A DNA stretch of 64,000 nt from a virus (Duplodnaviria; Caudoviricetes): the IMG/VR virus record IMGVR_UViG_3300020420_000671; one strand, written 5' to 3'. This document shows positions 7,336 to 33,296 of the stretch, piece by piece (positions within the stretch are counted from its first letter, which is position 1; each line of letters begins with the position of its first letter). The translations under genes were made by a program, and so were the position numbers. The notes beneath the pieces are model-generated. The model did not search any database. It worked only from the letters and a program-made list of their open reading frames with translations, and was not told the DNA's origin.

Positions 7336-7881
7336 ATGGCGACACATGGAATGATAGATTTAGAAACACTTGGGGTTAATCCTGATAGTGTTATCGTAAC
7401 AGTTGGTGCTATTAAGTTTAATCCATTTGATAATGCTGAACCTCATAATCCTTTGTATCTCAGATGTGATATAGAAGAACAAAGTGAAAATTTAAATAGA
7501 AAAATAGATGATAACACAATGAAGTGGTGGAGTAAACAACCACAAGAAATACAAGACGAAGCATTTGGAGATCATGAAAGAGTGGACAGTGGCGAACTTA
7601 CAAAACAATTAAACAAGTGGTGCGTAGGTTTAGATTATATTTGGTGCCAAGGACCTACCTTTGATTTTGTAATATTACAGGACTTATATAAAAATTTAGG
7701 CAAACCTGTGCCTTGGAACTTTTGGCAGATTAGAGATAGTAGAACATTGTTTAAAATGTTGCCACAGGATCCAAGAAAAAAGATACAACAATCAGCACAC
7801 AACGCCTTAGCAGATTGTTATTATCAAGCAAAATGCGTTCAAGACACATATAAACATTTTGGAGTTAAAAGTGAAAGCTAG
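7336..7881 (+). CDS. DEDDh 3'-5' exonuclease/exoribonuclease
   Basis: MIDLETLG motif I, QGPTFDFVIL motif II, HNALAD motif III. Confidence 0.85.
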   Translation: MATHGMIDLETLGVNPDSVIVTVGAIKFNPFDNAEPHNPLYLRCDIEEQSENLNRKIDDNTMKWWSKQPQEIQDEAFGDHERVDSGELTKQLNKWCVGLDYIWCQGPTFDFVILQDLYKNLGKPVPWNFWQIRDSRTLFKMLPQDPRKKIQQSAHNALADCYYQAKCVQDTYKHFGVKSES

Positions 7882-8182
7882 AAAATTAATTGACGGAACT
7901 GTAGTAGAAGAATTAGAGCAACCAGTTAATTTAGTTATTGAAACCAAATGTCCGAGCAAATGGAAAATCATTGATATGGAAACAGGACAGGCATATATTG
8001 GTACAGATAAAAATAAAAAGTTTCAATATTGGCAAGCCATAGATAATGATAGATTGACAAATATAGAAAAAGAACTTAAAATGTTAAATGAGAAGTTAGG
8101 AAAACATATTGAATTTATTGATCAAACATATGAAGGACTTAAAAACCCAATCAATGCGGCTAGGAGGTGGTTAGGACGATGA
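7871..8182 (+). CDS. Hypothetical protein
   Basis: GTG start after GGAG; CPSKWKIIDMETG motif; coupled to clamp loader. Confidence 0.55.
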   Translation: MKARKLIDGTVVEELEQPVNLVIETKCPSKWKIIDMETGQAYIGTDKNKKFQYWQAIDNDRLTNIEKELKMLNEKLGKHIEFIDQTYEGLKNPINAARRWLGR

Positions 8183-9096
8183 AGGAACTTTGGGTAGAAA
8201 AATATAGGCCGAAGGACGTAAAAGGATATGTGTTTCGGGATGAGCATCAAAGAAAACAAGTTGAGCAGTGGATAAAGGATGGTACTATTCCCCATTTATT
8301 GTTTAGCGGAAATGCTGGTATAGGTAAAACAACTCTAGCTAAAATTTTATTAACACAATTAGAAATAAATGACTTAGACGTATTAGAGATTAATGCCAGT
8401 AGAACTAATAGTGTAGAAGACGTTAGAGATAAGATTGTAAACTTTGTACAAATGATTCCGTTTGGAGCATTTAAGGTTGTATTGCTAGATGAGGCAGATT
8501 ATCTAAGTCCAAACGCACAAGCGGCATTGCGTGGTGTGATGGAAGAATATCATACAACAAGCAGGTTCATACTTACTTGTAACTATCCAAACAGGATTAT
8601 TCCAGCACTACATTCAAGATGTCAAGGCTTTCATATTGAACGTATTGATCAAACAGAATTTACTGCTCGTGTAGCAGAGATATTAATTGCTGAAGAAATT
8701 ACACCAGACATTGATACACTAGATACATACGTTAAGGCTACGTATCCTGATTTACGTAAGTGTATAAATATGGTACAAATGAATAGTGTAAGTGGTGAGC
8801 TTGTTCCTCCGCAAAAGAGTGATGCTGGAGAAAGTGATTGGAAACTTGAGATGACTGAACTATTCAAAGCAGGACAGATTTCTAAAGCAAGAAAACTTGT
8901 CTGTAGCCAAGCAAGACCAGAAGAGATAGAAGATGTTTACAAATGGCTTTATGACAACATTGATCTGTTTGGAAATGAAGAAAAACAGGAAAGTGCTATA
9001 TTGATTATAAAACAAGGATTAGTAGATCATACATTGGTTTCCGACCCAGAAATAAATTTGGCGGCTACTATGATCCGGTTAGCAAGAATGAAATGA
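8179..9096 (+). CDS. Sliding-clamp loader AAA+ subunit (RFC/gp44-like)
   Basis: [15 protein letters not shown] Walker A, LDEAD Walker B, SRC motif, INLAA terminus. Confidence 0.92.
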
Positions 9097-16610: not shown

Positions 16611-17696
16611 ATGAGATTTAGAGATATTAAAATTGCTGAAGCGAATAAAGGATCTAACGTAGTAAGGTATAACACCGAACTGGCGATGTTGACTGCTTTC
16701 AGTGGAGGAACAACTTTAAAAGATATTCCAGATGAAGCACTTGTCAATCCTAAAGCAACAAAAGTTGAAATAAAAAAGGTAGCCAAGTACTTTGATCAAA
16801 AAAAGTTTGATCAATGGATGACAATTAGTAATACATATAAAGAAAAAATATTATCTCATAGTGGAAAATTACCTCAACAATATGATTGGGTTGGCGGAAG
16901 CAACATAGGACCAGTAGCTGATTTAGTATTTAAGGATCATCCAGCTAGTGGAATAAGTGTAAAAGACGCATCCGGAATTACTCTAGCAAATCTAACACCT
17001 AAGGCTCTAGGTTTGGAACCATTGAAGGGCAAAGATGTGTTTCAATCATATGCTGATAAAGAATTTAAAAAATTTAAGATAAGAGTTTTTAATTTAATGA
17101 TGGACGAAGCAGAAGCAAGTCCTGGACAAGTTATACATCCAAGACCTAGTGGAAAAGAACGAAGTATGATGTTCGATGAAGAAAGTAAAAAATTTGTAAT
17201 TAAATATGACAAAGGTGTATTGAATCTTGATAGGAATGAAGTAATAAGAACTTCACCAAAAAATGCTTTATGGCAAAGAGTATTTGGTGATTGGTATCAA
17301 TCTAATTTTCAAAAATACAAAGACATAATGCGGCCACTTGTAAAAACAATTTCAAGAAGCTTCAAAGAAATAATGGGTAATGCTCTTTCAGATAGTGATA
17401 CCCTAAAAAAACTTTTACAGTTTGAAGACAAACCTTACTACTATGCTACTCCAAAAAAAATGTATTTTGTTCCGTCTGCCAAAGAGGCAGGAGATCTAGA
17501 ACTTAAAGCAATTGACTATGATGATCCAGATGGTACCAGTCAATTATTTAAAGCAAAGATTGGTAATGTTAACAGTGACGATGGAGCAGTCATAGATATC
17601 TACATACGTTTTGCAAATGGATTATTTGCTACTAATTCAACAGCCCGAGTACAAAGTATTAAGAACCCTGAACTGATAGCTTGGGACCTCATATAA
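16611..17696 (+). CDS. Putative PD-(D/E)XK nuclease-like protein with capsid-targeting-like leader
   Basis: Leader MRFRDIKIAE; YNTEL, VADLVF...GISVK resembles the restriction-endonuclease core. Confidence 0.45.
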   Translation: MRFRDIKIAEANKGSNVVRYNTELAMLTAFSGGTTLKDIPDEALVNPKATKVEIKKVAKYFDQKKFDQWMTISNTYKEKILSHSGKLPQQYDWVGGSNIGPVADLVFKDHPASGISVKDASGITLANLTPKALGLEPLKGKDVFQSYADKEFKKFKIRVFNLMMDEAEASPGQVIHPRPSGKERSMMFDEESKKFVIKYDKGVLNLDRNEVIRTSPKNALWQRVFGDWYQSNFQKYKDIMRPLVKTISRSFKEIMGNALSDSDTLKKLLQFEDKPYYYATPKKMYFVPSAKEAGDLELKAIDYDDPDGTSQLFKAKIGNVNSDDGAVIDIYIRFANGLFATNSTARVQSIKNPELIAWDLI

Positions 17697-17709: not shown

Positions 17710-18558
17710 ATGGACTATTACGATCTATTAGGCGTATCAAGACAAGCCTCCGACAAAGACTTAAAAAATGCTTTCAAAAACAAAGCCAGAGAACACCATC
17801 CCGACAAAGGTGGTGATCCTGAAAAGTTCAAACAAGTCAACGAGGCTTATCAAAATTTAAGCGATCCTCAAAAGCGTCAGATGTATGATCAATTTGGAAC
17901 TACTGACCCACAACAAGCAGGTTTCAATCAAGGCGGACAAACTTTCCATTTTACAGGAGATGGCTTTGGTGGTGGTATTAACATTAATGATATAATGAAC
18001 CAATTCGGTATGGGTGGTTTTGGACAAAGACAAATGGCTAACCAGGATGTCACGATCGGGTGTAGGATAACACTTAATGAAATATATACTGGTAAGAATG
18101 TTATTGCTAATTATAGACTTAATAATGGACAAGAACAAACTGTAGACATAAAGATTCCACCTGGAATAATTCCCGGAGATAAAATTAAATATTCAGGAAT
18201 GGGTCAAAGGGATATAAATGGTATTCCTCCAGGAGATCTATATGTTCAAATTCAAGTTTTAAGAGATAGAGATTGGGCTATCAATGGACTGGATTTGTTG
18301 ACAGAAAAGAAAGTGAGTGTTTTAGATTTGATGACAGGAACAACATTTAATGTAGACACTCCGGCAGGCAACAGTATAAGACTTACAATTCCAAAAGGCA
18401 CACAACCTAATACTGTATTCAACGTAACAGGAAAAGGCTTACATAACAGAAGAACAGGTAATATAGGAAACATACATGTCAAAATAATAGGTACAGTTCC
18501 TAAAAATTTAGACAACGAAGATGTAAACGCAATTGAGCAAATACGGAGAAAAAATTAG
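17710..18558 (+). CDS. dnaJ: DnaJ/CbpA-type co-chaperone (no zinc finger)
   Basis: DYYDLLGV, HPDKGG J-domain, G/F-rich linker, GDLYV C-terminal domain. Confidence 0.92.
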   Translation: MDYYDLLGVSRQASDKDLKNAFKNKAREHHPDKGGDPEKFKQVNEAYQNLSDPQKRQMYDQFGTTDPQQAGFNQGGQTFHFTGDGFGGGININDIMNQFGMGGFGQRQMANQDVTIGCRITLNEIYTGKNVIANYRLNNGQEQTVDIKIPPGIIPGDKIKYSGMGQRDINGIPPGDLYVQIQVLRDRDWAINGLDLLTEKKVSVLDLMTGTTFNVDTPAGNSIRLTIPKGTQPNTVFNVTGKGLHNRRTGNIGNIHVKIIGTVPKNLDNEDVNAIEQIRRKN

Positions 18559-18587
18559 TTGACAAATATGTGTGAAATATGTATAAT
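18559..18587 (+). promoter_or_regulatory. Consensus sigma70 promoter
   Basis: TTGACA-17 nt-TATAAT upstream of clpA. Confidence 0.8.
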
Positions 18588-18613
18588 AAATAAAAAATTA
18601 GGAGTGTATAAGA

Positions 18614-20875
18614 ATGGTTGAACCATCTGAAGAATTACAGGTAGTTTTTGAAAAAGCAAATAAAGATGCTAAAAAGTTAAAACATGATTATGTTACTTTA
18701 GAGCACTTGTTTTTTGCGATGTGTTGTAGTGACAACTTTATGAAGATACTAGAAGGGTATGGAGTAACTATTACAAAACTTAAAGACGAACTACATGACT
18801 ATCTTCAAAACAAATTAGATGATATCAAGAGAACTGACGACAAGCCGTATAAACCAAAGAAAACACAAACTGTTGAAAGAGTCATGAACAGAGCTTTCAC
18901 TCAAGTCTTGTTTAGTGGTAGACAGCATATTGATATTACTGATGTATTTTTATCTATGCTTAATGAGAAAAAATCATTCAGCACATACATTGCGACAGCA
19001 AACGGAGTTAACAAAGATAAGTTTAATGAATATATTAACGCCGAATATGTTAGCACTATCGAAGATGAGGAATTAGCAGGAGTTGCCCAAAGGGCTTTAA
19101 GAGCATTTACGACTAACCTCAATACTAAAGTTACGCAAGGTAAAATAGATCCTGTAATTGGCAGACAAGACGAGCTTGAAACGATATGTTTAAGTTTAGG
19201 TAGGCGTTTAAAGAATAACGTTTTGCTAGTAGGAGATCCAGGCGTTGGTAAAACTGCTATAGCCGAAGGTTTAGCATATAGAATTGTTAACAAAGTTGTT
19301 CCTAAGTTCCTAGAAGAATATAGTGTTTACAATCTAGATATAGGCTCAATGTTAGCAGGCTCTAAATATAGAGGAGACTTTGAAGAAAGATTTAAATTAG
19401 TTATGTCAGCTATTAAAAAGCAAGGCAAAACAATAGTATTCATTGATGAAGCACACATGATTAACGGTGCTGGTGCTGGTGGCGGAAACAGCTCAAATGA
19501 TTTGGCCAATATGTTGAAACCAGCTCTAGGTAAAGGTGACATCAAGGTTGTTGCTTCAACCACTTGGGAAGAATATAGAAAATACTTTGAGAAAGATAGA
19601 GCACTAATGCGTAGATTTCAACGTGTAAGTGTTGATGAACCTGATAAGAAAACTTCAGAAGATATCCTTAAAGGTATTAAAAAGTATTACGAGGACTTTC
19701 ATAACGTAGTAATTACAGATGAGGCGATTGACGAGTCAATCAAATTAAGTGTCAAATACATGACTGATAAAAAATTACCTGATAAAGCTATTGACTTGAT
19801 TGATCTAGCATGTTCAAGATTTAATTTGAAAGAAAAAGTACCGGAAGTTAAGACTGTAACTCCTGAAGAAATAAAGTTCGAACTTGCTAAGGTAGTAAAT
19901 TTACCTCCAGAACAAATACAACAAAAAGAAACAAATAATTTAAGTAAACTTAATAAAAACTTAAAACTAAATGTATATGGCCAGGATAATGCTATAGATG
20001 AAATAGTTGATAAGATCTTGGTAGCACAGGCAGGACTTAAATCAGAAGATAAACCAATTGGTTCATTTGTTTTCATGGGTCCAACTGGTGTAGGTAAAAC
20101 TGAATTAGCAAAACAATTGGCTAAACATTTAAGCATTAATTTAGCAAGATTTGATATGAGTGAATATCAAGAGAAACATAGTGTAAGTAAGCTGATTGGT
20201 TCACCTCCAGGATATGTTGGTCATGATGAACATTCAGGACAGTTGATTAATAAACTACAGGAACATCCTAATTGTGTATTGTTACTAGATGAAGTAGAAA
20301 AAGCACATCCTGATATTTCGCAAATTCTATTACAGTTAATGGATAACGGAAAAATTACAGGTAGTGACGGTAAAGAAGCAGACGCTAGAAATTGTATTTT
20401 AATATTAACAACTAATCTTGGTGCTGAGCAGGCAGAAAAAAATACAATAGGATTTAGTCAAGATATGGATATCGCTTATGGAGATGAGGAATTTAAAAGA
20501 TTCTTTGCTCCTGAATTTAGAAATAGACTTGACGGTGTTGTTGTGTTTGGAAAACTAGACAAACCAATTATGTTAAAAATTGTTGGAAAATTCCTAGTTG
20601 AGTTGAGAAATATGTTAACGGATAAAAATGTAAAATGTGAAATATCTGATTCTGCTTTAGATCATCTAGTCGATAATGGGTTTGATAGCAAGATGGGTGC
20701 TAGACCTATGCAGAGATACATAGACAAAAACATTAAACGTCCTTTAAGTAAATTACTGTTGTTCGGTGAATTAAAAGATGGCGGCACAGTAAAAATTGAT
20801 ATTGAAAAAGATCAAATAAAACTTATTCCACTAGAAAAAAAGGTCACCCATGTTACTGAAAAAGAAAACAGCTAG
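18614..20875 (+). CDS. clpA: ClpA-type Hsp100 ATPase
   Basis: Clp-N domain, two AAA+ modules (GDPGVGKT, GPTGVGKT), no ClpB middle domain, IGF loop (NTIGF), GARPM. Confidence 0.92.
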   Translation: MVEPSEELQVVFEKANKDAKKLKHDYVTLEHLFFAMCCSDNFMKILEGYGVTITKLKDELHDYLQNKLDDIKRTDDKPYKPKKTQTVERVMNRAFTQVLFSGRQHIDITDVFLSMLNEKKSFSTYIATANGVNKDKFNEYINAEYVSTIEDEELAGVAQRALRAFTTNLNTKVTQGKIDPVIGRQDELETICLSLGRRLKNNVLLVGDPGVGKTAIAEGLAYRIVNKVVPKFLEEYSVYNLDIGSMLAGSKYRGDFEERFKLVMSAIKKQGKTIVFIDEAHMINGAGAGGGNSSNDLANMLKPALGKGDIKVVASTTWEEYRKYFEKDRALMRRFQRVSVDEPDKKTSEDILKGIKKYYEDFHNVVITDEAIDESIKLSVKYMTDKKLPDKAIDLIDLACSRFNLKEKVPEVKTVTPEEIKFELAKVVNLPPEQIQQKETNNLSKLNKNLKLNVYGQDNAIDEIVDKILVAQAGLKSEDKPIGSFVFMGPTGVGKTELAKQLAKHLSINLARFDMSEYQEKHSVSKLIGSPPGYVGHDEHSGQLINKLQEHPNCVLLLDEVEKAHPDISQILLQLMDNGKITGSDGKEADARNCILILTTNLGAEQAEKNTIGFSQDMDIAYGDEEFKRFFAPEFRNRLDGVVVFGKLDKPIMLKIVGKFLVELRNMLTDKNVKCEISDSALDHLVDNGFDSKMGARPMQRYIDKNIKRPLSKLLLFGELKDGGTVKIDIEKDQIKLIPLEKKVTHVTEKENS

Positions 20876-21892: not shown

Positions 21893-22159
21893 ATGGAAAA
21901 CTTTATCAACATCGTTTTTGACACAAAGCAAGAAGTAGATGACATAGTTGTCTCTGAAGTAGCAACATCAGCATCAAATGCCTTACTAGAAGAAGAAACA
22001 GGCTACGAGCTGTACGACACAAACGATGGCAAAACAGTTCTAACAGTTGAAACACATGTACAACTAGATGAACAAGCGTCAAATGATGTGGCAAAGAAAA
22101 TAGCAAATAAATTATTTGATTTAGGATATAATAACTTTGACATTGAAGTGAGTGTCTAA
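21893..22159 (+). CDS. Acidic hypothetical protein
   Basis: AAGGAAG SD; coupled to the next gene. Confidence 0.6.
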   Translation: MENFINIVFDTKQEVDDIVVSEVATSASNALLEEETGYELYDTNDGKTVLTVETHVQLDEQASNDVAKKIANKLFDLGYNNFDIEVSV

Positions 22160-23229
22160 TGCGTTTTTATCATTTTAAACTAGACGAAAAGGTTCGACCG
22201 CCACGTCCTCAGACTGGTTTAGATCCTGAGCGTCTAAAAAAAATTGATAGAATTACACGTAAACTACAAAGCGATCCTGAACTAGTAGATGAAATTTTTA
22301 CCCAGATAAGCACTAAAGCAAAAGACATAGAAGGCAATTTTATTAATAGATTTATAGCTATGTTGAATCCGGATAATACTAGACCGGAAGCAGATCAAGC
22401 ATTTTCAAACTTTTTAAGAAAGTATGCTGAAGTTATTTCCGAAGTTGAAAGTACAACAGAAGAAAAATTTGCTTTTATTGGTAATCTAGGAAAGAAAAGC
22501 TATGTAGACACAGGTAAACTTTTAAAGCCAGGAAAGTCAAGCTGGGACGATTGGTTAGCAAATGACGACTTTGCCAGAAAATTATTTGACCATGCGTTCG
22601 GCGATCCAAGACTTACTACTGACAATAAGGGTCCAGGCGAAGCGGCCCTGGCTATTCTTTCTCCAGATATAAAATTATCAATTGGCGGAAGTGGTGACAT
22701 AGAAGTAAAAAATACACCAGTTGAAGTAAAAGCGGCGGCTGGACAAAGCACAGGTGCTGGAAGGCTTACTCCAACAAAAAACACTCTCGGTAATTATGAT
22801 TCTAAGGTAGTAGCTAAAATGTTATTTCCAAACGATCAAACCAAGCAAGATGCGTTAAATCAAAATTATAGAAACTGTTCAGCAAATATTTTTGGTAAAT
22901 TTGTAGAAGATTTTCAACTAGAGACTAATCAAGTACAAACTTTACTATCTAATATATTCAAAGAAGAAAGCATACAAGACATGGTTTCTAAGGTTGCGGC
23001 AAAGGGTAAAAACATAACTGGAAAAGACCTTCTTGGATTAAGCATTTACAATTACGGTAGATCACAAAATGATGAACATTTTTTAATACTTGTTAAGTCC
23101 ACTAGATCCAGCTTATATTTCCAGATAGACAATTGGGATCAGCCTGGTCTACAATTTGGTTTAACTGTGTTTGGAAGCGATGCACGTACTGTAGGTCAAA
23201 CGCAAATTGGAATCTTAAAGAGAGCTTAA
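22159..23229 (+). CDS. Putative PD-(D/E)XK nuclease-like protein with capsid-targeting-like leader
   Basis: Leader MRFYHFKLDE; GPGEAAL...GDIEV...VEVK motif triad. Confidence 0.5.
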   Translation: MRFYHFKLDEKVRPPRPQTGLDPERLKKIDRITRKLQSDPELVDEIFTQISTKAKDIEGNFINRFIAMLNPDNTRPEADQAFSNFLRKYAEVISEVESTTEEKFAFIGNLGKKSYVDTGKLLKPGKSSWDDWLANDDFARKLFDHAFGDPRLTTDNKGPGEAALAILSPDIKLSIGGSGDIEVKNTPVEVKAAAGQSTGAGRLTPTKNTLGNYDSKVVAKMLFPNDQTKQDALNQNYRNCSANIFGKFVEDFQLETNQVQTLLSNIFKEESIQDMVSKVAAKGKNITGKDLLGLSIYNYGRSQNDEHFLILVKSTRSSLYFQIDNWDQPGLQFGLTVFGSDARTVGQTQIGILKRA

Positions 23230-23577
23230 ATTTTTTTCTCTATCTAAAAACTTATATTCAACTTTTTCTGGTTCAAACTGCTGTAAGGCATCAAATACTT
23301 TTTGTATATCTAAAGGACCGCATGTATAAACATCTAATTGTATTAACCCAGGTTTACATTCATCCCAAACATGTATAGCAACATGACTGGTTTCTATAAC
23401 AGTCACACAGGTAATACCTCTATTGCCTTCCATATCGCAATACTTTGCGTAGGGACCTAGCATGATTCTCATGCCTATTGACTCTATTAAACTTTTTGCC
23501 CAACCCACTATTTGATGTTCGTTATTAGGTGGATTCTTTACTTCTGACCTAACAATCAGATGCTTGTGCTGTAACAT
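23215..23577 (-). CDS. speD: Pyruvoyl-dependent S-adenosylmethionine decarboxylase family
   Basis: KHLI..., VIETSHVAIHVW, LDVYTCG. Confidence 0.85.
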   Translation of the reverse strand: MLQHKHLIVRSEVKNPPNNEHQIVGWAKSLIESIGMRIMLGPYAKYCDMEGNRGITCVTVIETSHVAIHVWDECKPGLIQLDVYTCGPLDIQKVFDALQQFEPEKVEYKFLDREKNLSSL

Positions 23578-23672
23578 AAGCGTATCCTTTTTAGGTTCTA
23601 CTTATCTCGAACTAACTTTTGTATTTACATATATTGATAAATACTTTATAATAACGTATACAAGGTGTTATC

Positions 23673-24542
23673 ATGACAAAAACATTTAAAGATTATCTAA
23701 AAGAAAGCGGTTTACAGTACTATACTGGTGTTAAAAAACACGGTGAAGAGTACATGAAAAAAGCGGCTAAAGCAGGTCGTGAAGGAGCTAGCCAAGAAGA
23801 ACTAGGACGCCTAAAGGACAAATACAGTAAAGCAGAAAAGAATAAAAAAACTACTGAAGCTGATATGCAACGTGGCATGGGTGCTTTAGATAAATTTAGA
23901 GAATTATATAGAAAAGGTATTGGCACAAATGATGACGAAGTTGTTTTGAAAGAGTTGATTGACGTAATTAATGATGATACTTTACAAGATGATTTTCCAC
24001 AACTTAAATCTTTTACAAGTGCATCACCGTTTGACGACTCAGAGATAGTCCAAGCAAAAGATGTACCTGGAAATAGTGCTGATGAAAAAATTATGTCACT
24101 CATAAAAGCAATTGATGATGATTCATGGGTAGATGGTTTCGCTCAAATGTTGACGAAAGATTTCAACATGAGTGATAATGAAGAACTTGATAGAGTTCAG
24201 GAACTTGCTGGTGTACAAACAAATGAAGAAACATATGATGGAGATGATTTCTATAATAACTATGGTGACATGTGGTACAACGAAGATGAGATCATGGACG
24301 AAGCAGAATATCAAGGACGTAAAGTAAAGCTAGGCAAACCAATGCGTGGCGATGTAAAAAAGTTCAAAGTATACGTTAAAGATCCAAAAACTAAAAATGT
24401 TAAAAAAGTAAACTTTGGTGATCCTAACATGAAAATTAAAAAATCTAATCCGGCACGTAGAAGAAGTTTCCGTGCTAGACACAACTGTGATAATCCAGGA
24501 CCAAGAACAAAAGCTAGATATTGGTCATGTAGGAAATGGTAA
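23673..24542 (+). CDS. Putative internal head protein (T4-like CTS) with C-terminal basic two-Cys module
   Basis: MTKTFKDYLKE closely resembles T4 IP leaders; late box GATAAATA at 23636; C-terminal AEYQGRKVKLGKP...RYWSCRKW. Confidence 0.6.
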   Translation: MTKTFKDYLKESGLQYYTGVKKHGEEYMKKAAKAGREGASQEELGRLKDKYSKAEKNKKTTEADMQRGMGALDKFRELYRKGIGTNDDEVVLKELIDVINDDTLQDDFPQLKSFTSASPFDDSEIVQAKDVPGNSADEKIMSLIKAIDDDSWVDGFAQMLTKDFNMSDNEELDRVQELAGVQTNEETYDGDDFYNNYGDMWYNEDEIMDEAEYQGRKVKLGKPMRGDVKKFKVYVKDPKTKNVKKVNFGDPNMKIKKSNPARRRSFRARHNCDNPGPRTKARYWSCRKW

Positions 24543-24896
24543 ATGAAAATATTTGAAATTTTTAATAAAGAAATAGAAGATAAAATGCCCTACGATGTAG
24601 TAGATGACGTTCATTTTCATTTGCTTAATGACGATATGTTTTATAGAAAATATTATCTTCCGTGTATGGAAAAAATAAGAGCAGAGAAAAATGAAAAAGT
24701 GATTCAAGGTCATATGGATCCTATGATCCATAAAGGAATCAATCATTATGTTATAAAATATGACATAGATAAAACACCCACTGATTTAATGACTCCAGAG
24801 GAAGTAAAATCATTAAAGGACAGGGTTTTGGATCACGAACGAAATCCTGATAAGGAGTTACAAAGTGCACCTGAGACAGATATTCGAAGACCGTAA
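24543..24896 (+). CDS. Putative internal head protein
   Basis: Leader MKIFEIFNKE. Confidence 0.5.
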   Translation: MKIFEIFNKEIEDKMPYDVVDDVHFHLLNDDMFYRKYYLPCMEKIRAEKNEKVIQGHMDPMIHKGINHYVIKYDIDKTPTDLMTPEEVKSLKDRVLDHERNPDKELQSAPETDIRRP

Positions 24897-25749
24897 AACG
24901 GCTGTCTTTGCTTTAGGTAGACTGAATCCAGCTACCATTGGCCATGAAAGACTAGTTAACAAAATCAAAGAACAAAAAGGTGATCCTTTCCTTTTCTTAA
25001 CTGACCGACCATCAAAATTACCTGACGATCCTTTAGCACCGCAAGAAAAATTAGAGTGGGCACAAAAAAGTTTTGACGGAATACAAATTAGATTAGCAAA
25101 AACAATAGCTACAGCGGCAAATCAATTATATAGACAAGGTTACAATGAAATTACATTCTTAGAAGGTGAAGATAAATTATTTAATATACTTAAAAATTAC
25201 AACGGAAAGTTTGATGGCAAAAAAGGTCCTATTGAATTTCCCTTTAAGTTCGATAAATTAAATTACGTTAGGCTAGAAAGAAATGCTGACGATCCTGGTG
25301 CTTCAGGAATGAGTGCTACAAAGCTAAGACAATTTGCTCAAAATAATGATCTAGAAAAATTTACTTCAGGACTAGCTCAAAAGGCACAACCAAATGCGGA
25401 AAAAATGATGCGTCAGTTACAAGGAGCATTAGGTGTTGATCCTGTTGAAGAAGATTTACAAGAGCTAGAAGTAAAACAGCAAAAACCAAAGATAGATGTA
25501 TTGAATAACATTGCCGCAAGGACAGATGGAAGACCTTTTCCTTTGAGTTGGAACGCAGGTAAAGATGAAATATCAGTTGGAGGTAAAATGTTTGTATCTC
25601 CAAAGACAGCAAATAAATTTTTACGTTTCTTCGATAATCAAGAAAAGGAAAATCAAGAACTTATGAAAAAAGCACTAGGAAGTGCTAAAACAGCCGCTCA
25701 GCTTTTTAAAAATTTAGGCTTTGAATTTAAACTTGATATGGAGAGATAA
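24865..25749 (+). CDS. HIGH-superfamily nucleotidyltransferase (cytidyltransferase-like) with CTS-like leader
   Basis: GTG start after AAGGAG; MHLRQIFE; GRLNPATIGH (HIGH-like) and GMSATKLR (KMSKS-like). Confidence 0.75.
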   Translation: MHLRQIFEDRKTAVFALGRLNPATIGHERLVNKIKEQKGDPFLFLTDRPSKLPDDPLAPQEKLEWAQKSFDGIQIRLAKTIATAANQLYRQGYNEITFLEGEDKLFNILKNYNGKFDGKKGPIEFPFKFDKLNYVRLERNADDPGASGMSATKLRQFAQNNDLEKFTSGLAQKAQPNAEKMMRQLQGALGVDPVEEDLQELEVKQQKPKIDVLNNIAARTDGRPFPLSWNAGKDEISVGGKMFVSPKTANKFLRFFDNQEKENQELMKKALGSAKTAAQLFKNLGFEFKLDMER

Positions 25750-25961
25750 TGGATATTAAAACTCTTCAAAAACTTGCTGGCATAAATGAATTTCAAGGTT
25801 ACAGACCTGTTAGCATAGAAAATATGAGTCATACTGCTAGTGCTTTGAAGGCAAAGGAAAAGCGTTTAGGAGTAAAACCAGGCGATCGCGATTGGTTCAA
25901 GTTGTGGTTTAACTTACCTTACCTTACTGGTCCTGCTCAATTTAGGAGTAGAAAGAAATGA
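25749..25961 (+). CDS. Small putative internal head protein
   Basis: MDIKTLQKLAGINE; basic remainder. Confidence 0.55.
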   Translation: MDIKTLQKLAGINEFQGYRPVSIENMSHTASALKAKEKRLGVKPGDRDWFKLWFNLPYLTGPAQFRSRKK

Positions 25962-26506
25962 AAATAAGACAAATTTTTGAAGCAGTTGAAGGTAAACTAG
26001 AACTAACAAAATTGCCTTATAAAACAGGAGATCTTTCTCCAGTTCTTTCTAAGGACAATGTAGAATATCATTATAATGTGCTATCCAAAGGATATGTAAA
26101 TAGATATAATAATCAAGAAGGTGATCCAAAATTTAATTATGGTGGTGCTATGTTACACAATTTATTTTGGTCACAACTAAAGAAACCAGCAGGGTCAAAT
26201 TTACCTACAGGAGCAATTAAAAATTTAATTGAAGAAAACCATGAAGACTATTCTACGTTTAAAAATAGCGTGGTAGTTTTAGCAATGGGTATACAAGGTA
26301 GTGGTTGGGTCTATCTATCAAAAAACGGAGATCTTAAAACAACTCCTAATCAAAGTTATAAAACAGATATACTAATGCCTATAGATATGTGGGAACATAG
26401 TTTTACTGATTATATTCCGGCAAAAGATGCTAAGAAAAAGTATTTACAAAACATATTTAAGATAGTAAACTGGGACGTAATAAACAATAGGATAGACGGA
26501 AAATGA
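25958..26506 (+). CDS. Fe/Mn superoxide dismutase with CTS-like leader
   Basis: MKIRQIFEAVE; LPYKTGDLSPVLS, YHY, LHNLFW, GSGWVYL, DMWEH (all four metal ligands present). Confidence 0.88.
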   Translation: MKIRQIFEAVEGKLELTKLPYKTGDLSPVLSKDNVEYHYNVLSKGYVNRYNNQEGDPKFNYGGAMLHNLFWSQLKKPAGSNLPTGAIKNLIEENHEDYSTFKNSVVVLAMGIQGSGWVYLSKNGDLKTTPNQSYKTDILMPIDMWEHSFTDYIPAKDAKKKYLQNIFKIVNWDVINNRIDGK

Positions 26507-29500
26507 AATTTGGTGATTTCAAAGTAAAAGAAGAAGCCGCTGGCGTTGGCATAATTACAAAACAAAACGCAACCAAAGATGTTCCTGTTGGCGGTGAATA
26601 TATGAATGTGAAAAAACTTGGTTTGGGCAAAGGTAAGCCAAAAAAACATCCTAAAAAAGTACGAGGATCAAAGACCAATGTATTATTCAATTTAGGAATG
26701 GCCGAGAAGGAAGACAAAGGCGAAGACATGAAAGGTTTTGATCCTGAAACAGTACAAGCCCTAGCTAGACTTAGATCCAAATATCCACATGCCAAAGATC
26801 CGTTAGACGCACTTCTAAAATCAGTTCTTGCTACAGATAGAGATAACGATGCTGTTGACGATACGCAAGATGATAAGATCAGTAAAAACAAAACAACGGT
26901 TAGTAAACTTGAACCTGAGATTATAAGATTAAAAAGCAGATTGAGAGATGTAGAACTTCAGTTGAAAAATAAAGTGAAGGTAGGAGAGGCAGAACAATTA
27001 GACGAATTTATCCCCGCAGTGGCCGCAAGAATTGCTACTAGTGTTTTACCTAACATCGCAAAAAATTCTTCGCACCTAGGAGCCACAGGAGCTGGTACAG
27101 CAATAGGTGATAAGTTATTCAAACAGATTAAAAAAACTAGAAATGCCAATAAAGGTGTAGGACTAAAGGGTAGAAATCTAAGAGCTAAACAACTTTCACA
27201 AACCAATGAAGTTACAGCAAAGGATTTAAGTAGCGACAGCGAAGTTTACGTCGATATGGATGGCGTTCTAGCTGATTTCTTTGGTGCTTGGAAAAAACTT
27301 GTAGGTAAAGATTGGCGACAAATAAAAGATTTAGATGGAGCGTTACAGAAGATTAGGGATAAGGAAGATTTTTGGTTAAACATTCCTATTACTTCAAATG
27401 CTATGAATCTTTTAAATTTGATAAAAGAACTTAAAGGCAAATATAATATATTAAGTGCTCCTCTTCCAAACGATCCTAATGCTGAACCCCACAAACGTGA
27501 ATGGATCAAAAAGAATCTATCAGCCTTTCCACCGAGCAAGGTTATAATTACATCTAATAAAGCAGTACACGCTACCCAACCAGACGGAACACCAAACATC
27601 CTAATAGATGACTTTGGGAAAAATATTGAAAAATGGGAAGCGGCAGGCGGTGTTGGATTCAAACACAAGGATCACAAGTTTGAAAGAACTGTTAAAAATC
27701 TTAAACAAAATATGAAAGAAGATCTAGAAGAGCAACAGTTAGATGAATTTTTTCAATATTTTAAAATGTTAAAATATGGTTGGAAAACAGGCATGTGGCT
27801 GTGGAACAACAAATGGGCTATTGCGTTTATAGGCATTTCTTACAAGGCTTTTAAATGGGTTGCTGATGCTATAGCATGGCTTAAACCCTTCCTTGACAAT
27901 CCAGTAGTAAAAGCATTAGGAAGATATGGATTACCTGCTATAGGAGTTGCTATTGCGTTATATGGTGGAAAAAAACTATACGACCAAATAACAAAAGCAG
28001 AGAACGAAAAAGACTTGGAAAAAATATTAGCAAACTTTGAAGCAGATCAAGAAGAACTTGCTATGCTTAAAAAAGAATTAGAAATTATATCGAAAAAAAG
28101 CAAAACTACTGAAGCAAAAATGAGCAAAGATTCCATTAAAAGCATACACAAAACAGCTGACAAAATTAAAGATAAACCAAAAGCCAAAAAGTCAATAGGC
28201 AATTGGGCAAAAGAAAGAGGAATGGATCCTGAAGGAGCAATTTACGCAATAGCTACAAATATGAAAAAGCGTAAGCAAGGAAAAAAAATTACAGGATTAG
28301 GCAAGGAGTCTTACACAAGAGATGAACTTCCACAAATAAGTCAAAAACATTTAGTGAAGATTCCGCACACGATGGAAACTGTTTATGTCAAAGACATAGT
28401 CCCAGTACAAAAAGAAAGATTAAAAGAAAATCATAAAAAACAACTTTACAAAATACTAGATGGAAGATTTAATCCTATTGTGGTAGACTGTTACGATAGA
28501 ATAGTCAACGGTCATCACAGATATGACATCCTTAAAATGCTTCAGATGGAAAGCATTACAGTTGCTAAACTTCCTTTTACATTAGAATTTTTATTAGAAA
28601 TAACTAGAAGAGATTTCTTAAAAGGGCTTGGCGCCACAGCGGCAATGTCCATGGTACCGAAGGCCGCAAAAGCGTTGGCCAACAACAAGGAACAATGGTA
28701 TGTTATAGATGAAAAAGGCAGATTACAAGGACCTATGGATAGTAATAAAGCAAAAACTGTATCCATTGCTTATCCAAAAAAATTACCGGCTATAGAACCT
28801 GCTCCTGAAGGTTTTGAAATAATAATTGCCCAAGGATCAAGTACTAAATTGAATATGGCTTTTACAAAAGCCGAGTTTGCTATAAAGAAAATATATGCTA
28901 GAAGATTTCCTGGAAAGACTGTGAATGTAAATCGCAAAATAATTAAATTACAGGGTAGAGCAATAGAGGCGGCAGGTTCATCTTATGTAGCTACTCAGAG
29001 TGCTTATGTTAAGAAAACTACAGAAGAAAGCGTTGAAGAAGGAAATTTATTATCAAATCCACAGAACTCTATTTTGGTTAGAAAAAAAGATGGTTATGAC
29101 CATTATAAACTTGCCACGCACATAGCAAACATAAAAGGAATGTCACCAAAGGTTGCCGCTAGGAATAAGCAAGACATATTCATTCAATTTTATGGTGGTG
29201 AAAAAGAAAAACAATACATGATGAAAAATCTTAAACGTATAGGATATGATGTACAACCTGCTGATGGATATAAAGATACACATTTCGACGAAAACATAGA
29301 CGGATCATACATATTAAGAGTGAGAGAAAATTTTGCTGATGGTAAGAAAAAAGGTAAAAGTAGACCAGGACGTGTTAAACGTTCAGGAGCAAGTTGTAAA
29401 GGATCAGTTACAAGTTTAAGAGCAAAAGCAAAGAAAGCATCAGGTGAACGTGCTAAGATGTATCATTGGTGTGCTAATATGAAGGGTGGTAAAAAGAAAA

Positions 29501-30423
29501 CTGAAGCATATACCCAAGATGAATTTTTTAAAATTTTAGTAGAAAGTACTCCACAACAGCTCGAAGAAGGTATAGCAGATACACTTAAAAAACTTCCTAA
29601 GAATTTATTATCAAAAGTGACACCTATAATTAAAAAGATCCCAAAGACAGCAAAAAATTTAACCTTAATGGCAGTATTGCTTGGTACAATGGTAAATGCT
29701 GTTGCGGCAGGAGATATGGCCAAAGTCAATACACCACTTGATAAACTTAATAATATGACAACTATGAGCACTACAATGGACACAGGTACTGATGCTGACG
29801 TTGGGCCAGGGCATACAATGCCTGACAAAATAAAGGTATTAAAAATGCCAACACCTCCACCAGCACCGGGTGCAGATACTCCAGATGGAACAAAAAATGA
29901 TGGTACAAACACACAGACAACAAAAGATGGTAATCGTACTGTGTCAAGTGGAGCAGGTACATATACATTTTCACCAGATGGGAAATTATTAAAGTATGAA
30001 ACTCCTAAAATAAAAGGATATCAACAAATACATGATCTAGTTAAAAAAACAGTCACAGTTGATGCTAATACATCTGTTACAATGGACAAAGATTTTGGTA
30101 ACTTATCCAAAGCAGATAAAGAATTATTGAAAAAGAATGATCCTAATTTTGATAAAAGTACATCAGTAATAGATCAAAAAGCAACTTATGACATGAGCGG
30201 TAACCTTATAAGCAAAGATCATACTGGTATAAAGTCCGGAGCAGTATCGATTGGTATTGGTGGAGATGGAAATAAGAGTTTTAAATTTGACGCAGGAGGA
30301 GGAAAGGTATATAAAGCAAGTAGTGCCGATATGCCAGCGGCTAAGAAAACTTTAAGCAAAATGCAGACGGATTTGAACAAAGCAAAAGATCAGAGTGCGC
30401 CATTTGCAAACAAATCGACCTAG
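26503..30423 (+). CDS. Modular polyprotein (HAD 5'-nucleotidase, membrane segment, ParB/Srx-like domain, Tat-signal domain, basic module, Sec-signal domain)
   Basis: DMDGVLADF...ILIDD HAD motifs; PIVVD...IVNGHHR ParB-like motif; TRRDFLKG; modules bounded by xLxE-type linkers. Confidence 0.7.
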   Translation: MKFGDFKVKEEAAGVGIITKQNATKDVPVGGEYMNVKKLGLGKGKPKKHPKKVRGSKTNVLFNLGMAEKEDKGEDMKGFDPETVQALARLRSKYPHAKDPLDALLKSVLATDRDNDAVDDTQDDKISKNKTTVSKLEPEIIRLKSRLRDVELQLKNKVKVGEAEQLDEFIPAVAARIATSVLPNIAKNSSHLGATGAGTAIGDKLFKQIKKTRNANKGVGLKGRNLRAKQLSQTNEVTAKDLSSDSEVYVDMDGVLADFFGAWKKLVGKDWRQIKDLDGALQKIRDKEDFWLNIPITSNAMNLLNLIKELKGKYNILSAPLPNDPNAEPHKREWIKKNLSAFPPSKVIITSNKAVHATQPDGTPNILIDDFGKNIEKWEAAGGVGFKHKDHKFERTVKNLKQNMKEDLEEQQLDEFFQYFKMLKYGWKTGMWLWNNKWAIAFIGISYKAFKWVADAIAWLKPFLDNPVVKALGRYGLPAIGVAIALYGGKKLYDQITKAENEKDLEKILANFEADQEELAMLKKELEIISKKSKTTEAKMSKDSIKSIHKTADKIKDKPKAKKSIGNWAKERGMDPEGAIYAIATNMKKRKQGKKITGLGKESYTRDELPQISQKHLVKIPHTMETVYVKDIVPVQKERLKENHKKQLYKILDGRFNPIVVDCYDRIVNGHHRYDILKMLQMESITVAKLPFTLEFLLEITRRDFLKGLGATAAMSMVPKAAKALANNKEQWYVIDEKGRLQGPMDSNKAKTVSIAYPKKLPAIEPAPEGFEIIIAQGSSTKLNMAFTKAEFAIKKIYARRFPGKTVNVNRKIIKLQGRAIEAAGSSYVATQSAYVKKTTEESVEEGNLLSNPQNSILVRKKDGYDHYKLATHIANIKGMSPKVAARNKQDIFIQFYGGEKEKQYMMKNLKRIGYDVQPADGYKDTHFDENIDGSYILRVRENFADGKKKGKSRPGRVKRSGASCKGSVTSLRAKAKKASGERAKMYHWCANMKGGKKKTEAYTQDEFFKILVESTPQQLEEGIADTLKKLPKNLLSKVTPIIKKIPKTAKNLTLMAVLLGTMVNAVAAGDMAKVNTPLDKLNNMTTMSTTMDTGTDADVGPGHTMPDKIKVLKMPTPPPAPGADTPDGTKNDGTNTQTTKDGNRTVSSGAGTYTFSPDGKLLKYETPKIKGYQQIHDLVKKTVTVDANTSVTMDKDFGNLSKADKELLKKNDPNFDKSTSVIDQKATYDMSGNLISKDHTGIKSGAVSIGIGGDGNKSFKFDAGGGKVYKASSADMPAAKKTLSKMQTDLNKAKDQSAPFANKST

Positions 30424-30444
30424 GAAATAAAGGTAAATAATACT

Positions 30445-30663
30445 ATGTTAGTTAGAGAAATAATTAAGGAATACGCTACACAAGGAGCGACTGTCGCAGG
30501 TAATGTACCAGCAGTAGCGAACCCTAGTATGGCTTATGGACATAGACCTAAGGGTAAAAATGGCTTACCACAAGCTCCACAAAAGAAAAACAAGGATGGA
30601 ACAGCTAAAAACGCATTGGATATTAGTAACAATTTAATGGGCGGTAAGACCATTAAGAGATAA
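30445..30663 (+). CDS. Small basic putative internal head protein
   Basis: GTAAATA box 6 nt before ATG; leader MLVREIIKE. Confidence 0.55.
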   Translation: MLVREIIKEYATQGATVAGNVPAVANPSMAYGHRPKGKNGLPQAPQKKNKDGTAKNALDISNNLMGGKTIKR

Positions 30664-30682
30664 ATACTAAAAAGGAAGCAAA

Positions 30683-31618
30683 ATGAGAGAAAAGGACCTT
30701 AAAGAAGATTTAGCAACGCTGGCTTACAAAGCCGAAGCAGACCATGAAGTACAGATGGCTAGATCAGATCTATATAAAATAGCCAAATACTCTATCAAGC
30801 TACACGAAATGATGAAGGGTGTAACTGAGCAAGAGGGTATTGAAGGTTGGGTTCAATCTAAAATTACAAAAGCCGCAGATTACATAGGTTCAGTATACCA
30901 TTATCTAGACTATGAAATGAAGTTTGATGAAATGACTGAAGCTAAAAAAGCAAAACCAGATTACATTGATATTGACGGCGATGGCGATAAAAAAGAGCCA
31001 ATGAAAAAAGCAGTCAAGGATAAAGCTAAGAAGAAAAAAGTTAAAGAAGGTATGATGGACGACGAAGTAAAATCCATACTTATGAAGCATCCAAAAGAAT
31101 TCGCAAAACTGAGAGCATCAGAAGATTTGATGGACGTTTATGGCACTCCGTTATATCAAGAATTGTTTGAATATTTTTCAGATTCAGGTGAAATGCCATA
31201 TGGTACTCAAAAGGGCAGAGACGGTGATCCTGTCCAGTGGATGAACGATGAGCTAGATGACATGGGTGTATTTGACCAACCAGAAAAAATGAATGTATCA
31301 GCCGCAGACAAAAGATTAAACACACCTGCTTTCAAAAAAATGCAAGCCGGAGATAAACGTTATAGTGATAAAACTGAAGAAACATACGAAAGTTATCTAC
31401 AGGAAAAACTTAACAAAACAAGAAAGTATAAAACACTACTGGAATCTGTTGGAAAACCAATTTCAGAAGAAGAATTTGACACCCTTGCTGAGAAACAAGA
31501 TGCTTGTTATCACAAGGTAAAGTCCAGATACAAAGTTTGGCCTAGCGCCTATGCCTCTGGTGCTCTAGTTCAGTGCCGTAAAAAGGGTGCTAAGAACTGG
31601 GGTAACAAGAGCAAGTGA
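30683..31618 (+). CDS. Modular putative internal head protein
   Basis: GATAAATA box at 30659; MREKDLKE; DIDGDGD Ca-binding-like loop; C-terminal KQDAC...VQCRKKGAKNWG module. Confidence 0.55.
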   Translation: MREKDLKEDLATLAYKAEADHEVQMARSDLYKIAKYSIKLHEMMKGVTEQEGIEGWVQSKITKAADYIGSVYHYLDYEMKFDEMTEAKKAKPDYIDIDGDGDKKEPMKKAVKDKAKKKKVKEGMMDDEVKSILMKHPKEFAKLRASEDLMDVYGTPLYQELFEYFSDSGEMPYGTQKGRDGDPVQWMNDELDDMGVFDQPEKMNVSAADKRLNTPAFKKMQAGDKRYSDKTEETYESYLQEKLNKTRKYKTLLESVGKPISEEEFDTLAEKQDACYHKVKSRYKVWPSAYASGALVQCRKKGAKNWGNKSK

Positions 31619-32388
31619 AACTAAGACAACTCATAAGCATTATCGAAAACGCTGACCAAGACAGTACAGAAGTCACTGTTGGCAATTATACCACAACACA
31701 TTTTTATATGTGTGGAAGTGCGATCAAGACAGCAGAAAAACACGGGGAAAAGCCCGGTATGGAAGATTTAGTCCGTTTACAAGATATGATTTATAAACTT
31801 GAAAAAGCAGTTATGGATACTGGCGAAGCAACATCTGAAGCAAAACAATTTGCTCAAAAATTACATAACGAAATAATGGATAAAGCAAAAGAGATTGGCA
31901 TCGAAGACGAAATTGTTGACTACCAAGAAGATCATAGAGACAGTATTTTAAAAGGCGATCCTAAGCCTGGATTTGGGCGTGTGGATGTTGAAGAAAATTG
32001 GGAAATTACAGATGAAGGTACTAGATGTTGGAAGGGTTATGAACGTAAAGGCATGAAGACCATGTTCGGAAAACGTGTACCTAACTGTGTAAAAAGAGAA
32101 CATGTAGACTATTGTGTGAACTGTGGTGATCTTGTATTTTCAGAAGATATGAATTTACATGAAGATTTAAAAAAATGGTTCAAACAAAAATGGGTCCGCT
32201 TTGGTCCAGACGGAAAAGTACGTGGATCATGCGGAGGAAAAAGTGAAGGTGAAGGAAAGCCAAAGTGTTTACCAGCCGCAAAGGCCTACGCTATGGGCAA
32301 GAAGAAAAGAAAAACTTCTGCCGCTCGTAAACGTAGGAAAGATCCTAATGCAGATAGACGTGGTAAGGCTAAAAACGTTAAAACTTAG
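31615..32388 (+). CDS. Modular putative internal head protein
   Basis: GTG start; MKLRQLISIIE; two basic two-Cys modules following Glu residues. Confidence 0.55.
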   Translation: MKLRQLISIIENADQDSTEVTVGNYTTTHFYMCGSAIKTAEKHGEKPGMEDLVRLQDMIYKLEKAVMDTGEATSEAKQFAQKLHNEIMDKAKEIGIEDEIVDYQEDHRDSILKGDPKPGFGRVDVEENWEITDEGTRCWKGYERKGMKTMFGKRVPNCVKREHVDYCVNCGDLVFSEDMNLHEDLKKWFKQKWVRFGPDGKVRGSCGGKSEGEGKPKCLPAAKAYAMGKKKRKTSAARKRRKDPNADRRGKAKNVKT

Positions 32389-32648: not shown

Positions 32649-33296
32649 ATGTCTTTTTTAGTTTGTAACACCCCAATTATTCCAGTATATGTAAAGAAAG
32701 AATATCTCTATGATTTAGAAAAAGGTCATGGCGAACTAACTCCTGGCTTTTGGATCACAGCTAAAAGTGTTATGGGTAAAGCTCTGTACTTTGAAACACT
32801 TCTAACAGATTACGGTGCTTTATTTGATAAACTTCCTATATCAGCTTTTGTTTGGAAGGAAGATTATGATAAACATAACCAACTACCATTAGATGTTTTA
32901 CAGATATGGGATTGTTTTGATTATGACATTACTATTATTAAAAAGTCTATGCTATCCAACTGTCAATTTTTTGGAAAAGATAAAAAAATGCATAACGGTG
33001 AATATCTATTTACTATTGACAATGCTCATAGGGAAAGAAATGTTATTGATACAAACTTTTCTGAACACGATCCCGAACACAAATCGTTTAACATAATTAA
33101 GTTAGACAATGGTCAGTTTGCGGCACAGCCTAACAATAGAATAATATTCACAGATCAAAGCCTAGTTCTAGGTGATAGAAAACAACCAGACTTCAAAGTG
33201 TGTACACAAAATTACACAGTAGAAAATACCCCAAAGTGGTCAGTAGGACATACAGACGAATGGCAATACAAGACAAAAGAGGAAAAAGATTTATAG
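32649..33296 (+). CDS. Hypothetical protein
   Basis: 215-aa ORF after GATAAATA box at 32633. Confidence 0.7.
   Translation: MSFLVCNTPIIPVYVKKEYLYDLEKGHGELTPGFWITAKSVMGKALYFETLLTDYGALFDKLPISAFVWKEDYDKHNQLPLDVLQIWDCFDYDITIIKKSMLSNCQFFGKDKKMHNGEYLFTIDNAHRERNVIDTNFSEHDPEHKSFNIIKLDNGQFAAQPNNRIIFTDQSLVLGDRKQPDFKVCTQNYTVENTPKWSVGHTDEWQYKTKEEKDL

Follow-up and report, generated by a model that had tools for sequence, protein, structure and literature searches.

In the 64,000-nucleotide stretch of viral DNA analysed here (the window; IMG/VR record IMGVR_UViG_3300020420_000671), an uninterrupted open reading frame (ORF) at 26503-30423 on the plus strand encodes a protein of 1306 amino acids, with a precursor mass of approximately 145 kDa, in which unrelated modules are joined at glutamate residues. 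We propose that this protein is a cargo polyprotein of the polyvalent type, resembling phage polypeptides that each contain many unrelated, extensively shuffled domains (Iyer et al. 2017, PMC5512222), and that it would be targeted to the prohead and cut by a gp21-type prohead protease at junctions with the motif [LIVM]-x-E. We estimate the probability of this reading at roughly 0.6. The ORF and its modules are real, the modules are shuffled among homologues at glutamate junctions that carry the [LIVM]-x-E motif, an internal junction and the N-terminal leader of a related gene hold the same position ahead of a given module, and the protease is encoded by relatives of the phage. An earlier reading made from the letters of the window alone (the sequence-only reading) had placed a polyprotein at this position, and the ORF is indeed open and of the length that it gave.

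We found the identical 1306-residue protein on six contigs from independent assemblies, one of them a 148.6-kb ENA contig and another a Logan assembly from a separate sequencing run, and it is therefore not an assembly artefact. These six contigs and the more than 100 homologues with unbroken ORFs rule out a false gene fusion. Internal translation starts were also ruled out, as the residues that follow the junctions are K, F, V, A, S, I, G and N, and never Met.

Modules of the 1306-residue protein

The protein consists of approximately 12 functionally unrelated modules, including a 5'(3')-deoxyribonucleotidase (NT5C), a ParB/Srx-like domain and a module with a twin-arginine (Tat) signal, which places it within the 2-15 unrelated domains expected of a polyvalent protein. 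All modules lie on the plus strand; in the motifs below, a slash marks the junction. The leader MKFGDFKVKE/ (residues 1-10, 26503..26532) resembles the capsid-targeting sequence of T4, and in homologues it ends in hydrophobic-x-E immediately ahead of (A/G)VG. It is followed by a conserved N-module of 58 residues (11-68, 26533..26706), which ends in NLGMAE/, is the defining feature of the family and may represent a targeting or propeptide domain of extended length. Module 3 (69-168, 26707..27006) is acidic and helical, ends in KVGE/AEQLDE/ and is C-terminal in other homologues. Module 4 (169-236, 27007..27210) is amphipathic and hydrophobic, then basic, and ends in QTNE/, with a non-canonical residue at P3, the hydrophobic position of the motif. 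The NT5C module, which belongs to the HAD family (237-415, 27211..27747; Pfam PF06941; PHROG 2643, 8e-23), has a Pfam match spanning residues 248-382 and an intact catalytic DxD motif, and its end carries the triple site MKE/DLEE/QQLDE/. Next come a Trp-rich hydrophobic, possibly membrane-active, and coiled-coil module ending in the non-canonical KTTE/ (416-537, 27748..28113) and a basic module 7 (538-600, 28114..28302), which begins with AKMSK and ends in LGKE/, with a non-canonical P3 and an invariant Glu.

The ParB/Srx-like module (601-699, 28303..28599) contains the sequence NGHHRYD, ends in FLLE/ and matches PHROG 620 (ParB-like, residues 654-689) with the ParB GHHR motif intact; a PDB profile search with residues 538-699 matched the solved ParB-domain nuclease 5k5d (E 0.003). 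The Tat-signal module (700-846, 28600..29040) runs from ITRRDFLKG to AKA/ and continues into a passenger of approximately 120 residues that ends in SVEE/. Conserved module 10 (847-942, 29041..29328), ending in RVRE/, is followed by an NFADGKK cassette with a strongly basic, helical two-Cys module (943-1000, 29329..29502; net charge +17); the RPGR core of this basic module (KGKSRPGRVKR) resembles an AT-hook. A short acidic spacer ending in QQLEE/ (1001-1022, 29503..29568) leads to the C-terminal module (1023-1306 plus the stop codon, 29569..30423), which comprises a basic stretch, one transmembrane or signal-like helix (LMAVLLGTMVNAVAAG, ending in AVAAG), a disordered linker and a beta-hairpin-repeat domain.

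Pfam, PHROG and PDB profile matches agree with the HAD 5'-nucleotidase, ParB/Srx-like and Tat domains that the sequence-only reading had recognized, and its coordinates for linkers and modules were correct (E168 ends at nucleotide 27006 and E415 at 27747; NT5C lies at approximately 27211-27747 and the ParB-like domain at 28303-28599). The AlphaFold model of module 10 with the basic module was of low confidence, with a mean predicted local distance difference test score (pLDDT) of 54; the basic domain formed three helices at approximately 80 and the RVRE/NFADG junction was disordered. A PDB profile search with the same two modules gave no match. The model of the C-terminal 306 residues (pLDDT 71) contained helices, a disordered linker at 1090-1104 and the beta-hairpin-repeat domain, and it had no significant fold match in the PDB and only weak, RHS-like beta-hairpin-repeat matches in AlphaFold DB.

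Modules are shuffled at glutamate junctions

A protein search returned 243 homologues from marine metagenomes, and we analysed the junctions in 120 of them. The homologues are mosaics whose breakpoints cluster at query residues 68, 162-168, 236-242, 406-415, 537, 600, 699-701, 842-846, 942, approximately 1000 and 1101. Comparison of homologues had been set beforehand as a test of the polyprotein proposal, and modules are gained and lost at the Glu linkers. The sequence-only reading had named nine such linkers as module boundaries, and eight of these coincide with breakpoints among the 120 homologues (QLDE/F twice, QTNE/V, KTTE/A, LGKE/S, FLLE/I, SVEE/G and RVRE/N). The ninth, QLEE/G, shows no shuffling breakpoint and is supported instead by an invariant L-x-E/G in 14 of 14 contexts and by homology of the acidic spacer to the long leader of stand-alone genes. 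The boundary near residue 1101 is a disordered Gly/Asp/Thr stretch without Glu.

The N-module in homologues always ends in NLG(L/M)(A/T/S)E, after which more than 12 unrelated modules are found, and NT5C ends in PVEE, PAKE, MSE or IAE before varied modules. The start of the ParB module, SYxRxELPQ, follows an invariant Glu, ahead of which the linker varies in length. The sequence before hydrophobic modules is invariably L-(D/N/Y/S)-E/, which explains why QLDE/F is repeated verbatim in the protein studied here. Glu stands before NFADGKK in every case, and behind it come at least four different modules, of which the KGKSRPGRVKR domain is just one; the cassette is therefore portable in its own right, and ENFADGKK (29326-29352 in the window, and its counterparts in homologues) may represent a cleavage site in optimised form.

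Modules also move between neighbouring genes of the cluster, and in one relative the ParB module, module 10 and the basic module are found on a nucleotidyltransferase gene. In addition, related loci contain stand-alone genes for single modules, encoding proteins of 67 residues (MRIFEVVE/NFADGKKKG...), 68 residues (MLVSEITE/NFADGKV...), 94 residues (MRFAE/LDKRTIRKAHK..., comparable to basic module 7), 229 residues (MRFVEIKD...QQLEE/GIKD...) and 164 residues (MKAYEITE/AEVTPGQ...). In these genes the leader ends exactly at the position of the polyprotein junction. We consider this correspondence, together with the movement of modules, to be the strongest comparative argument that internal junctions may be treated in the same way as an N-terminal leader.

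Counted over distinct sequence contexts, the residue before a module start was Glu, and never Asp, in 89/89 cases for NFADG, 29/29 for the ParB module, 31/33 for module 10, 14/14 for the C-terminal module and 66/71 for the end of the N-module. P3 was L, I, V or M at 60% of 443 junction Glu contexts compared with 19% of 956 other Glu (odds ratio 6.7), and P1' at junctions favoured N, S, A and G. At 34-35% of the BLAST alignment ends with unrelated flanks, the boundary residue was Glu, compared with a frequency of 5.6% in aligned identical residues. Of the [LIVM]xE sites in 42 non-redundant homologues, 54% fell within junction windows that made up 16.5% of the length, compared with 19.8% of other Glu.

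The 1306-residue protein itself contains 15 [LIVM]xE sites against a shuffle expectation of 14.9; the site count is thus at chance level and the placement alone is non-random, which rules out a composition effect. Eleven or twelve of the 15 lie at the leader or at junctions (residues 10, 68, 162, 168, 406, 410, 415, 699, 846, 942 and 1014/1022), leaving just three inside modules (309, 642 and 737). In a stricter placement test, 7 of 14 evaluable sites fell in windows covering 11% of the length (p = 4e-4), although the junction statistics are drawn from sequences related to one another, so that p-values overstate independence and are not strict probabilities; the effect sizes are large nonetheless.

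These patterns bear on whether the protein is cut at all. It may instead work as one 145-kDa multidomain chain, packaged or not, in which the Glu junctions are simply preferred linker or recombination points. There is precedent for this in N4 virion RNA polymerase and ArdC, which are transferred unprocessed (PMC5512222), and three junctions of the polyprotein depart from the motif. However, ordinary linkers interchange Asp and Glu, whereas here the Glu is invariant and P3 is hydrophobic; the stand-alone genes place their leader exactly at the junction position; and the Tat and signal-like segments, 700 and 1020 residues into the chain, would be useless without a free N terminus. We therefore consider an uncut chain unlikely.

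Leaders mark a cluster of candidate cargo genes

In T4, the capsid-targeting sequence is MKTYQEFIAE (PMC8442874). It is cut by gp21 after the final Glu, Asp at that position blocks processing, and it suffices for packaging foreign proteins up to the size of beta-galactosidase (PMC8442874, PMC9026906); a 116-kDa fusion has been packaged in this way (PMC9026906). The polyprotein leader has the features of a T4 cargo leader: it is approximately ten residues long, ends in hydrophobic-x-E and resembles MKTYQEFIAE. The polyprotein gene is one of ten consecutive genes with capsid-targeting-like leaders (22159..32388, plus strand), a block that shares modules with the polyprotein family. Besides MKFGDFKVKE of the polyprotein, the leaders include MKIRQIFE, MHLRQIFE, MKLRQLISIIE, MLVREIIKE, MTKTFKDYLKE, MRFYHFKLDE and others; elsewhere in the window, any hydrophobic-x-E near the start is found in approximately one gene in five. 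The whole leader-bearing block looks like a cargo gene cluster.

Among the genes in the cluster are those for an Fe/Mn superoxide dismutase (25958-26506; Pfam Sod_Fe_N/C) and a cytidylyltransferase-like enzyme, a nucleotidyltransferase (24865-25749). Several genes of the cluster end in small basic two-Cys domains. The sole minus-strand gene inside it (23215-23577) has a precomputed Pfam match to AdoMet_dc (S-adenosylmethionine decarboxylase-like). One further gene with such a leader (MRFRDIKIAE) lies upstream at 16611-17696.

The N-module reaches well beyond the homologues of the full protein. A profile of the 68 N-terminal residues matched 891 clusters at 50% identity, 346 of them at E <= 1e-10, nearly always at the N terminus of proteins of 70-1472 residues. 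The N-module ended in Glu in 120/132, with no fewer than 32 kinds of sequence after it. NT5C was found on just approximately one-fifth of the N-module-led proteins; other cargo domains are DUF5661, GH19 and phage lysozymes, LysM, Cu/Zn superoxide dismutase, CCA-adding/poly(A)-polymerase-type nucleotidyltransferase, cytidylyltransferase-like, HD, GNAT and sigma-70 region 4 domains. Pterin-4a-carbinolamine dehydratase is also present on N-module-led proteins (P0194, P0199 and others surveyed). GH19, phage lysozyme and LysM domains are characteristic of enzymes that virions deliver, and the peptidoglycan hydrolases among this cargo would fit such delivery.

A gp21-like protease and the head module of relatives

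Three long relatives in which the cluster is syntenic encode a Peptidase_S77 protein (92-96 bits) that is 37% identical to T4 gp21. The gene sits in a T4-like module in the order portal, acidic protein, protease, scaffold and capsid. When one relative was scanned end to end, hydrophobic-x-E leaders were concentrated in two places only, the cargo cluster and the head module, where the leader-bearing genes include those for the protease, the scaffold protein and the capsid protein as well as a small MILRELF gene. The propeptide of that capsid protein carries LFE/S, LLE/G, TLE/N and LAE/N. The last two flank a residue that aligns near the T4 gp23 maturation site LTE65/A, and the capsid protein of the relative is predicted to mature at a site with the same motif as the polyprotein junctions; LAE/N is the exact sequence of many ...LAE/NFADG junctions. 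In relative G003, a 303-residue, extremely acidic Asp/Glu-rich protein is encoded between the portal and protease genes (L083, 6670-7581; the S77 protease gene is at 7582-8229), the position of T4 gp67/gp68, and a 79-residue gene at 119707-119946 starts with MILRELF, the same leader type as in the cargo genes.

The scaffold protein of the scanned relative bears the same type of sites and leader as the polyprotein. This would also be expected if the polyprotein were a component of the head core or scaffold that is broken down and discarded as the head matures, as happens to gp22, gp67 and gp68 of T4, and that has no function once injection has taken place, and the tandem MKE/DLEE/QQLDE/ recalls the redundant clearing of propeptides in giant phages (PMC5694885). 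The modules, however, are intact enzyme and binding domains (HAD DxD, ParB GHHR) that are conserved and shuffled as units, and with just 3 of 15 sites inside modules the placement of the motif preserves folded products. A disposable core component is for these reasons very unlikely.

Export signals inside the chain

The Pfam TAT_signal model matched residues 699-718 at 23.8 bits (cut-off 22.7), with the twin-arginine motif, the h-region and the AxA site all present. The signal is kept in five groups of homologues with two unrelated passengers, and RRxFL was found only directly after L[LV]E/. As the signal starts at residue 700, it is not N-terminal in the full-length polypeptide and would become so only by a cut at FLLE699/. 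Both the Tat signal and the signal-like segment of the C-terminal module would need a free N terminus to work, and they lie approximately 700 and 1020 residues deep in a chain of 1306 residues. We read them, along with the modelled disorder at RVRE/NFADG and the virion-type enzymes on other N-module-led proteins, as signs that the pieces of the polyprotein may act separately.

Genomic setting

The window is AT-rich and nearly all of its genes share one strand. Its DNA polymerase is 42-50% identical to those of jumbo phages of the T4 superfamily (Sinorhizobium phage Phosso, Agrobacterium phage Atu_ph07 and Rak2-like phages). From related IMG/VR contigs, 146-268 kb long and with completeness ratings of 40-75%, a genome size of approximately 360 kb can be deduced; the polyprotein gene belongs to a marine jumbo phage of the T4 superfamily with a genome of that size. 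Upstream of it are DnaJ-like and Clp-ATPase-like genes and downstream of it is the DNA polymerase gene, a synteny conserved in relatives. The DnaJ-like and Clp-family ATPase genes (17710-20875; PHROG 4871, 822 bits) are directly upstream of the cargo cluster, and cultured Sinorhizobium phage Phosso shows the same neighbourhood of Clp, peptide deformylase and DnaJ genes. We can only guess that these Clp- and DnaJ-like neighbours might help to unfold or refold cargo. Two other genes of the window are unrelated to the polyprotein: one matching PHROG 3704, annotated 'ferredoxin' (32649-33296; E 7e-102), and a large HNH endonuclease gene (55197-56465; PHROG 1314).

A position among early or replication-type genes, beside the Clp-like and DnaJ-like genes, raises the alternative that the polyprotein is cut in the cytoplasm of the infected cell, whether by a different Glu-specific protease or by the prohead protease working outside the head, and that its products function within the producing cell, Tat export to the periplasm being one example. 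In related phages NT5C is an ordinary cytoplasmic enzyme, and the living cytoplasm that Tat export requires is also offered by the producing cell. On the other side, we saw no other candidate site-specific protease in the window, T4 gp21 is known to act within the prohead (PMC9026906), the leaders resemble the capsid-targeting sequence and the same type marks the head-core proteins of a relative, and the lysozyme and GH19 cargo of N-module proteins suits delivery by virions. Cutting in the cytoplasm thus appears improbable to us.

Several points weigh against a packaged and cleaved polyprotein. We infer both its packaging and its cleavage from sequence, and the evidence for the S77 protease comes from relatives rather than from the genome of the window itself. 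The gene lies among replication and chaperone genes, from Clp/DnaJ-like to DNA polymerase, away from the head genes, whereas a late or virion gene location would be expected of a polyvalent protein; by the marks of packaging used for such proteins, only the leader and the lysozyme cargo of the wider family hint that the polyprotein is packaged. The T4 late-promoter motif TATAAATA is not enriched (4 found, 10 expected). The family is absent from cultured relatives, in that megablast against cultured phages gave no match and tblastn matched the NT5C part alone, and Phosso encodes NT5C as a plain gene without a leader. The relatedness of the sequences behind the junction statistics belongs here too, and the invariant Glu might, in principle, serve the modules as a structural cap. 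Finally, three junctions carry T, T and G at P3 rather than a hydrophobic residue (TNE236, TTE537 and GKE600); these positions are canonical in many homologues.

A model for cargo loading and release

On the reading that we favour, a cargo polyprotein cut in the prohead, the leader and the 58-residue N-module would bring the 145-kDa precursor into the scaffolding core of the prohead. A gp21-type (Peptidase_S77) protease would then cut after Glu at the [L/I/V/M]-x-E junctions, releasing approximately 8-11 separate polypeptides in equal numbers. The range reflects the three non-canonical junctions: cutting at canonical sites alone would give 8 products, and cutting at every junction Glu up to 11. 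These would include the 5'-deoxyribonucleotidase, the ParB/Srx-like protein, the basic two-Cys module, which may bind DNA, hydrophobic membrane-active modules and others. The pieces would remain in the head and enter the host with the DNA. The cut at FLLE/ would expose the twin-arginine signal and that at QLEE/ a signal- or anchor-like helix, which could send two products or more on to the host envelope. The sequence-only reading had proposed that approximately ten effectors are cut apart in the capsid; the motif, the leader, the stand-alone genes and the S77 protease of relatives are in keeping with such cutting, whereas the expected number of products is 8-11 and not a firm ten, and 'effectors' is unproven as a name for most modules.

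A more general picture, to which we would give slightly less than even odds, is that of a plug-and-play cargo system in marine jumbo T4-like phages. Modules flanked by [LIVM]-x-E, often by way of ENFADGKK, would be swappable, the leader and N-module would address them to the prohead, and the protease would free proteins for injection, some of which may be re-exported by Tat- or Sec-type signals into the envelope of the new host.

Relation to known systems

The sequence-only reading presented a polyprotein strategy in a phage as more isolated than it appears to be: what we describe joins the known T4 capsid-targeting and gp21 system to the known polyvalent proteins. [quoted passage not shown] PHROG and Pfam searches found no homology to IPI, IPII, IPIII or Alt in the 1306-residue protein. 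The T4 cargo is encoded by separate genes and each protein is cut once at its N terminus (Alt is cut at both ends), whereas the polyprotein strings up to approximately 12 modules with internal sites into one ORF, after an extra N-module of 58 residues.

With the polyvalent proteins there is overlap in repertoire, namely ParB/Srx here, and GNAT, Pol-beta-type nucleotidyltransferase, lysozyme, HD and a weak zincin-like module in homologues. The last is an HExxH module at residues 66-200 of homologue P0070, with sub-threshold matches to zincin-like peptidases (M78/IrrE, M76 and Tox-MPTase3), and it may correspond to the metallopeptidase domain found in polyvalent proteins. Polyvalent proteins have been proposed to be processed by a built-in metallopeptidase or a C-terminal assemblin-like peptidase (PMC5512222). 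In contrast, a Pfam scan found no peptidase domain in the 1306-residue protein, and it has conserved sites on which the head protease would act in trans. Neither the family nor its N-module nor the ENFADGKK cassette figures in the published survey (PMC5512222), and the gene is not among late genes.

A further parallel is offered by the ejection and inner-body proteins that gp175 or gp245 cleaves in the giant phages phiKZ, 201phi2-1 and SPN3US. In these phages many head proteins have a short motif at which they are cleaved after Glu, targeting is signalled by long paralogous propeptides, and cleavage sites are multiple and redundant. They differ in their S/A/G-x-E motif, in that cutting mostly removes propeptides, and in belonging to a different phage lineage; to our knowledge, they do not string a dozen unrelated enzymes into one precursor. 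The polyproteins of eukaryotic RNA viruses (picorna-like viruses and potyviruses) derive several products in fixed stoichiometry from one ORF with short protease sites, as the gene studied here would; the motif and the comparisons among homologues point strongly to such sites, although cleavage here is deduced from sequence. Here the protease is encoded elsewhere in the genome, and the proposed cutting would take place inside the assembling capsid and serve cargo loading, not genome expression. T4-type leader and gp21 processing and polyvalent proteins are combined here in a form that we did not find described in the literature searched.

If our reading is correct, the family would provide a clear case of a bacteriophage polyprotein strategy for capsid loading, and one that is abundant in ocean metagenomes. 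Cassette shuffling at protease sites would explain the rapid diversification of the proteins that jumbo phages inject, and the combination of leader and [LIVM]-x-E junctions would be a sequence rule that predicts the virion cargo of uncultured phages. The leader and the cassette could become tools for packaging foreign proteins, as the T4 capsid-targeting sequence already has. For the infected host, it would suggest that injected phage proteins can go on to the periplasm or membrane by means of signals unmasked by cleavage.

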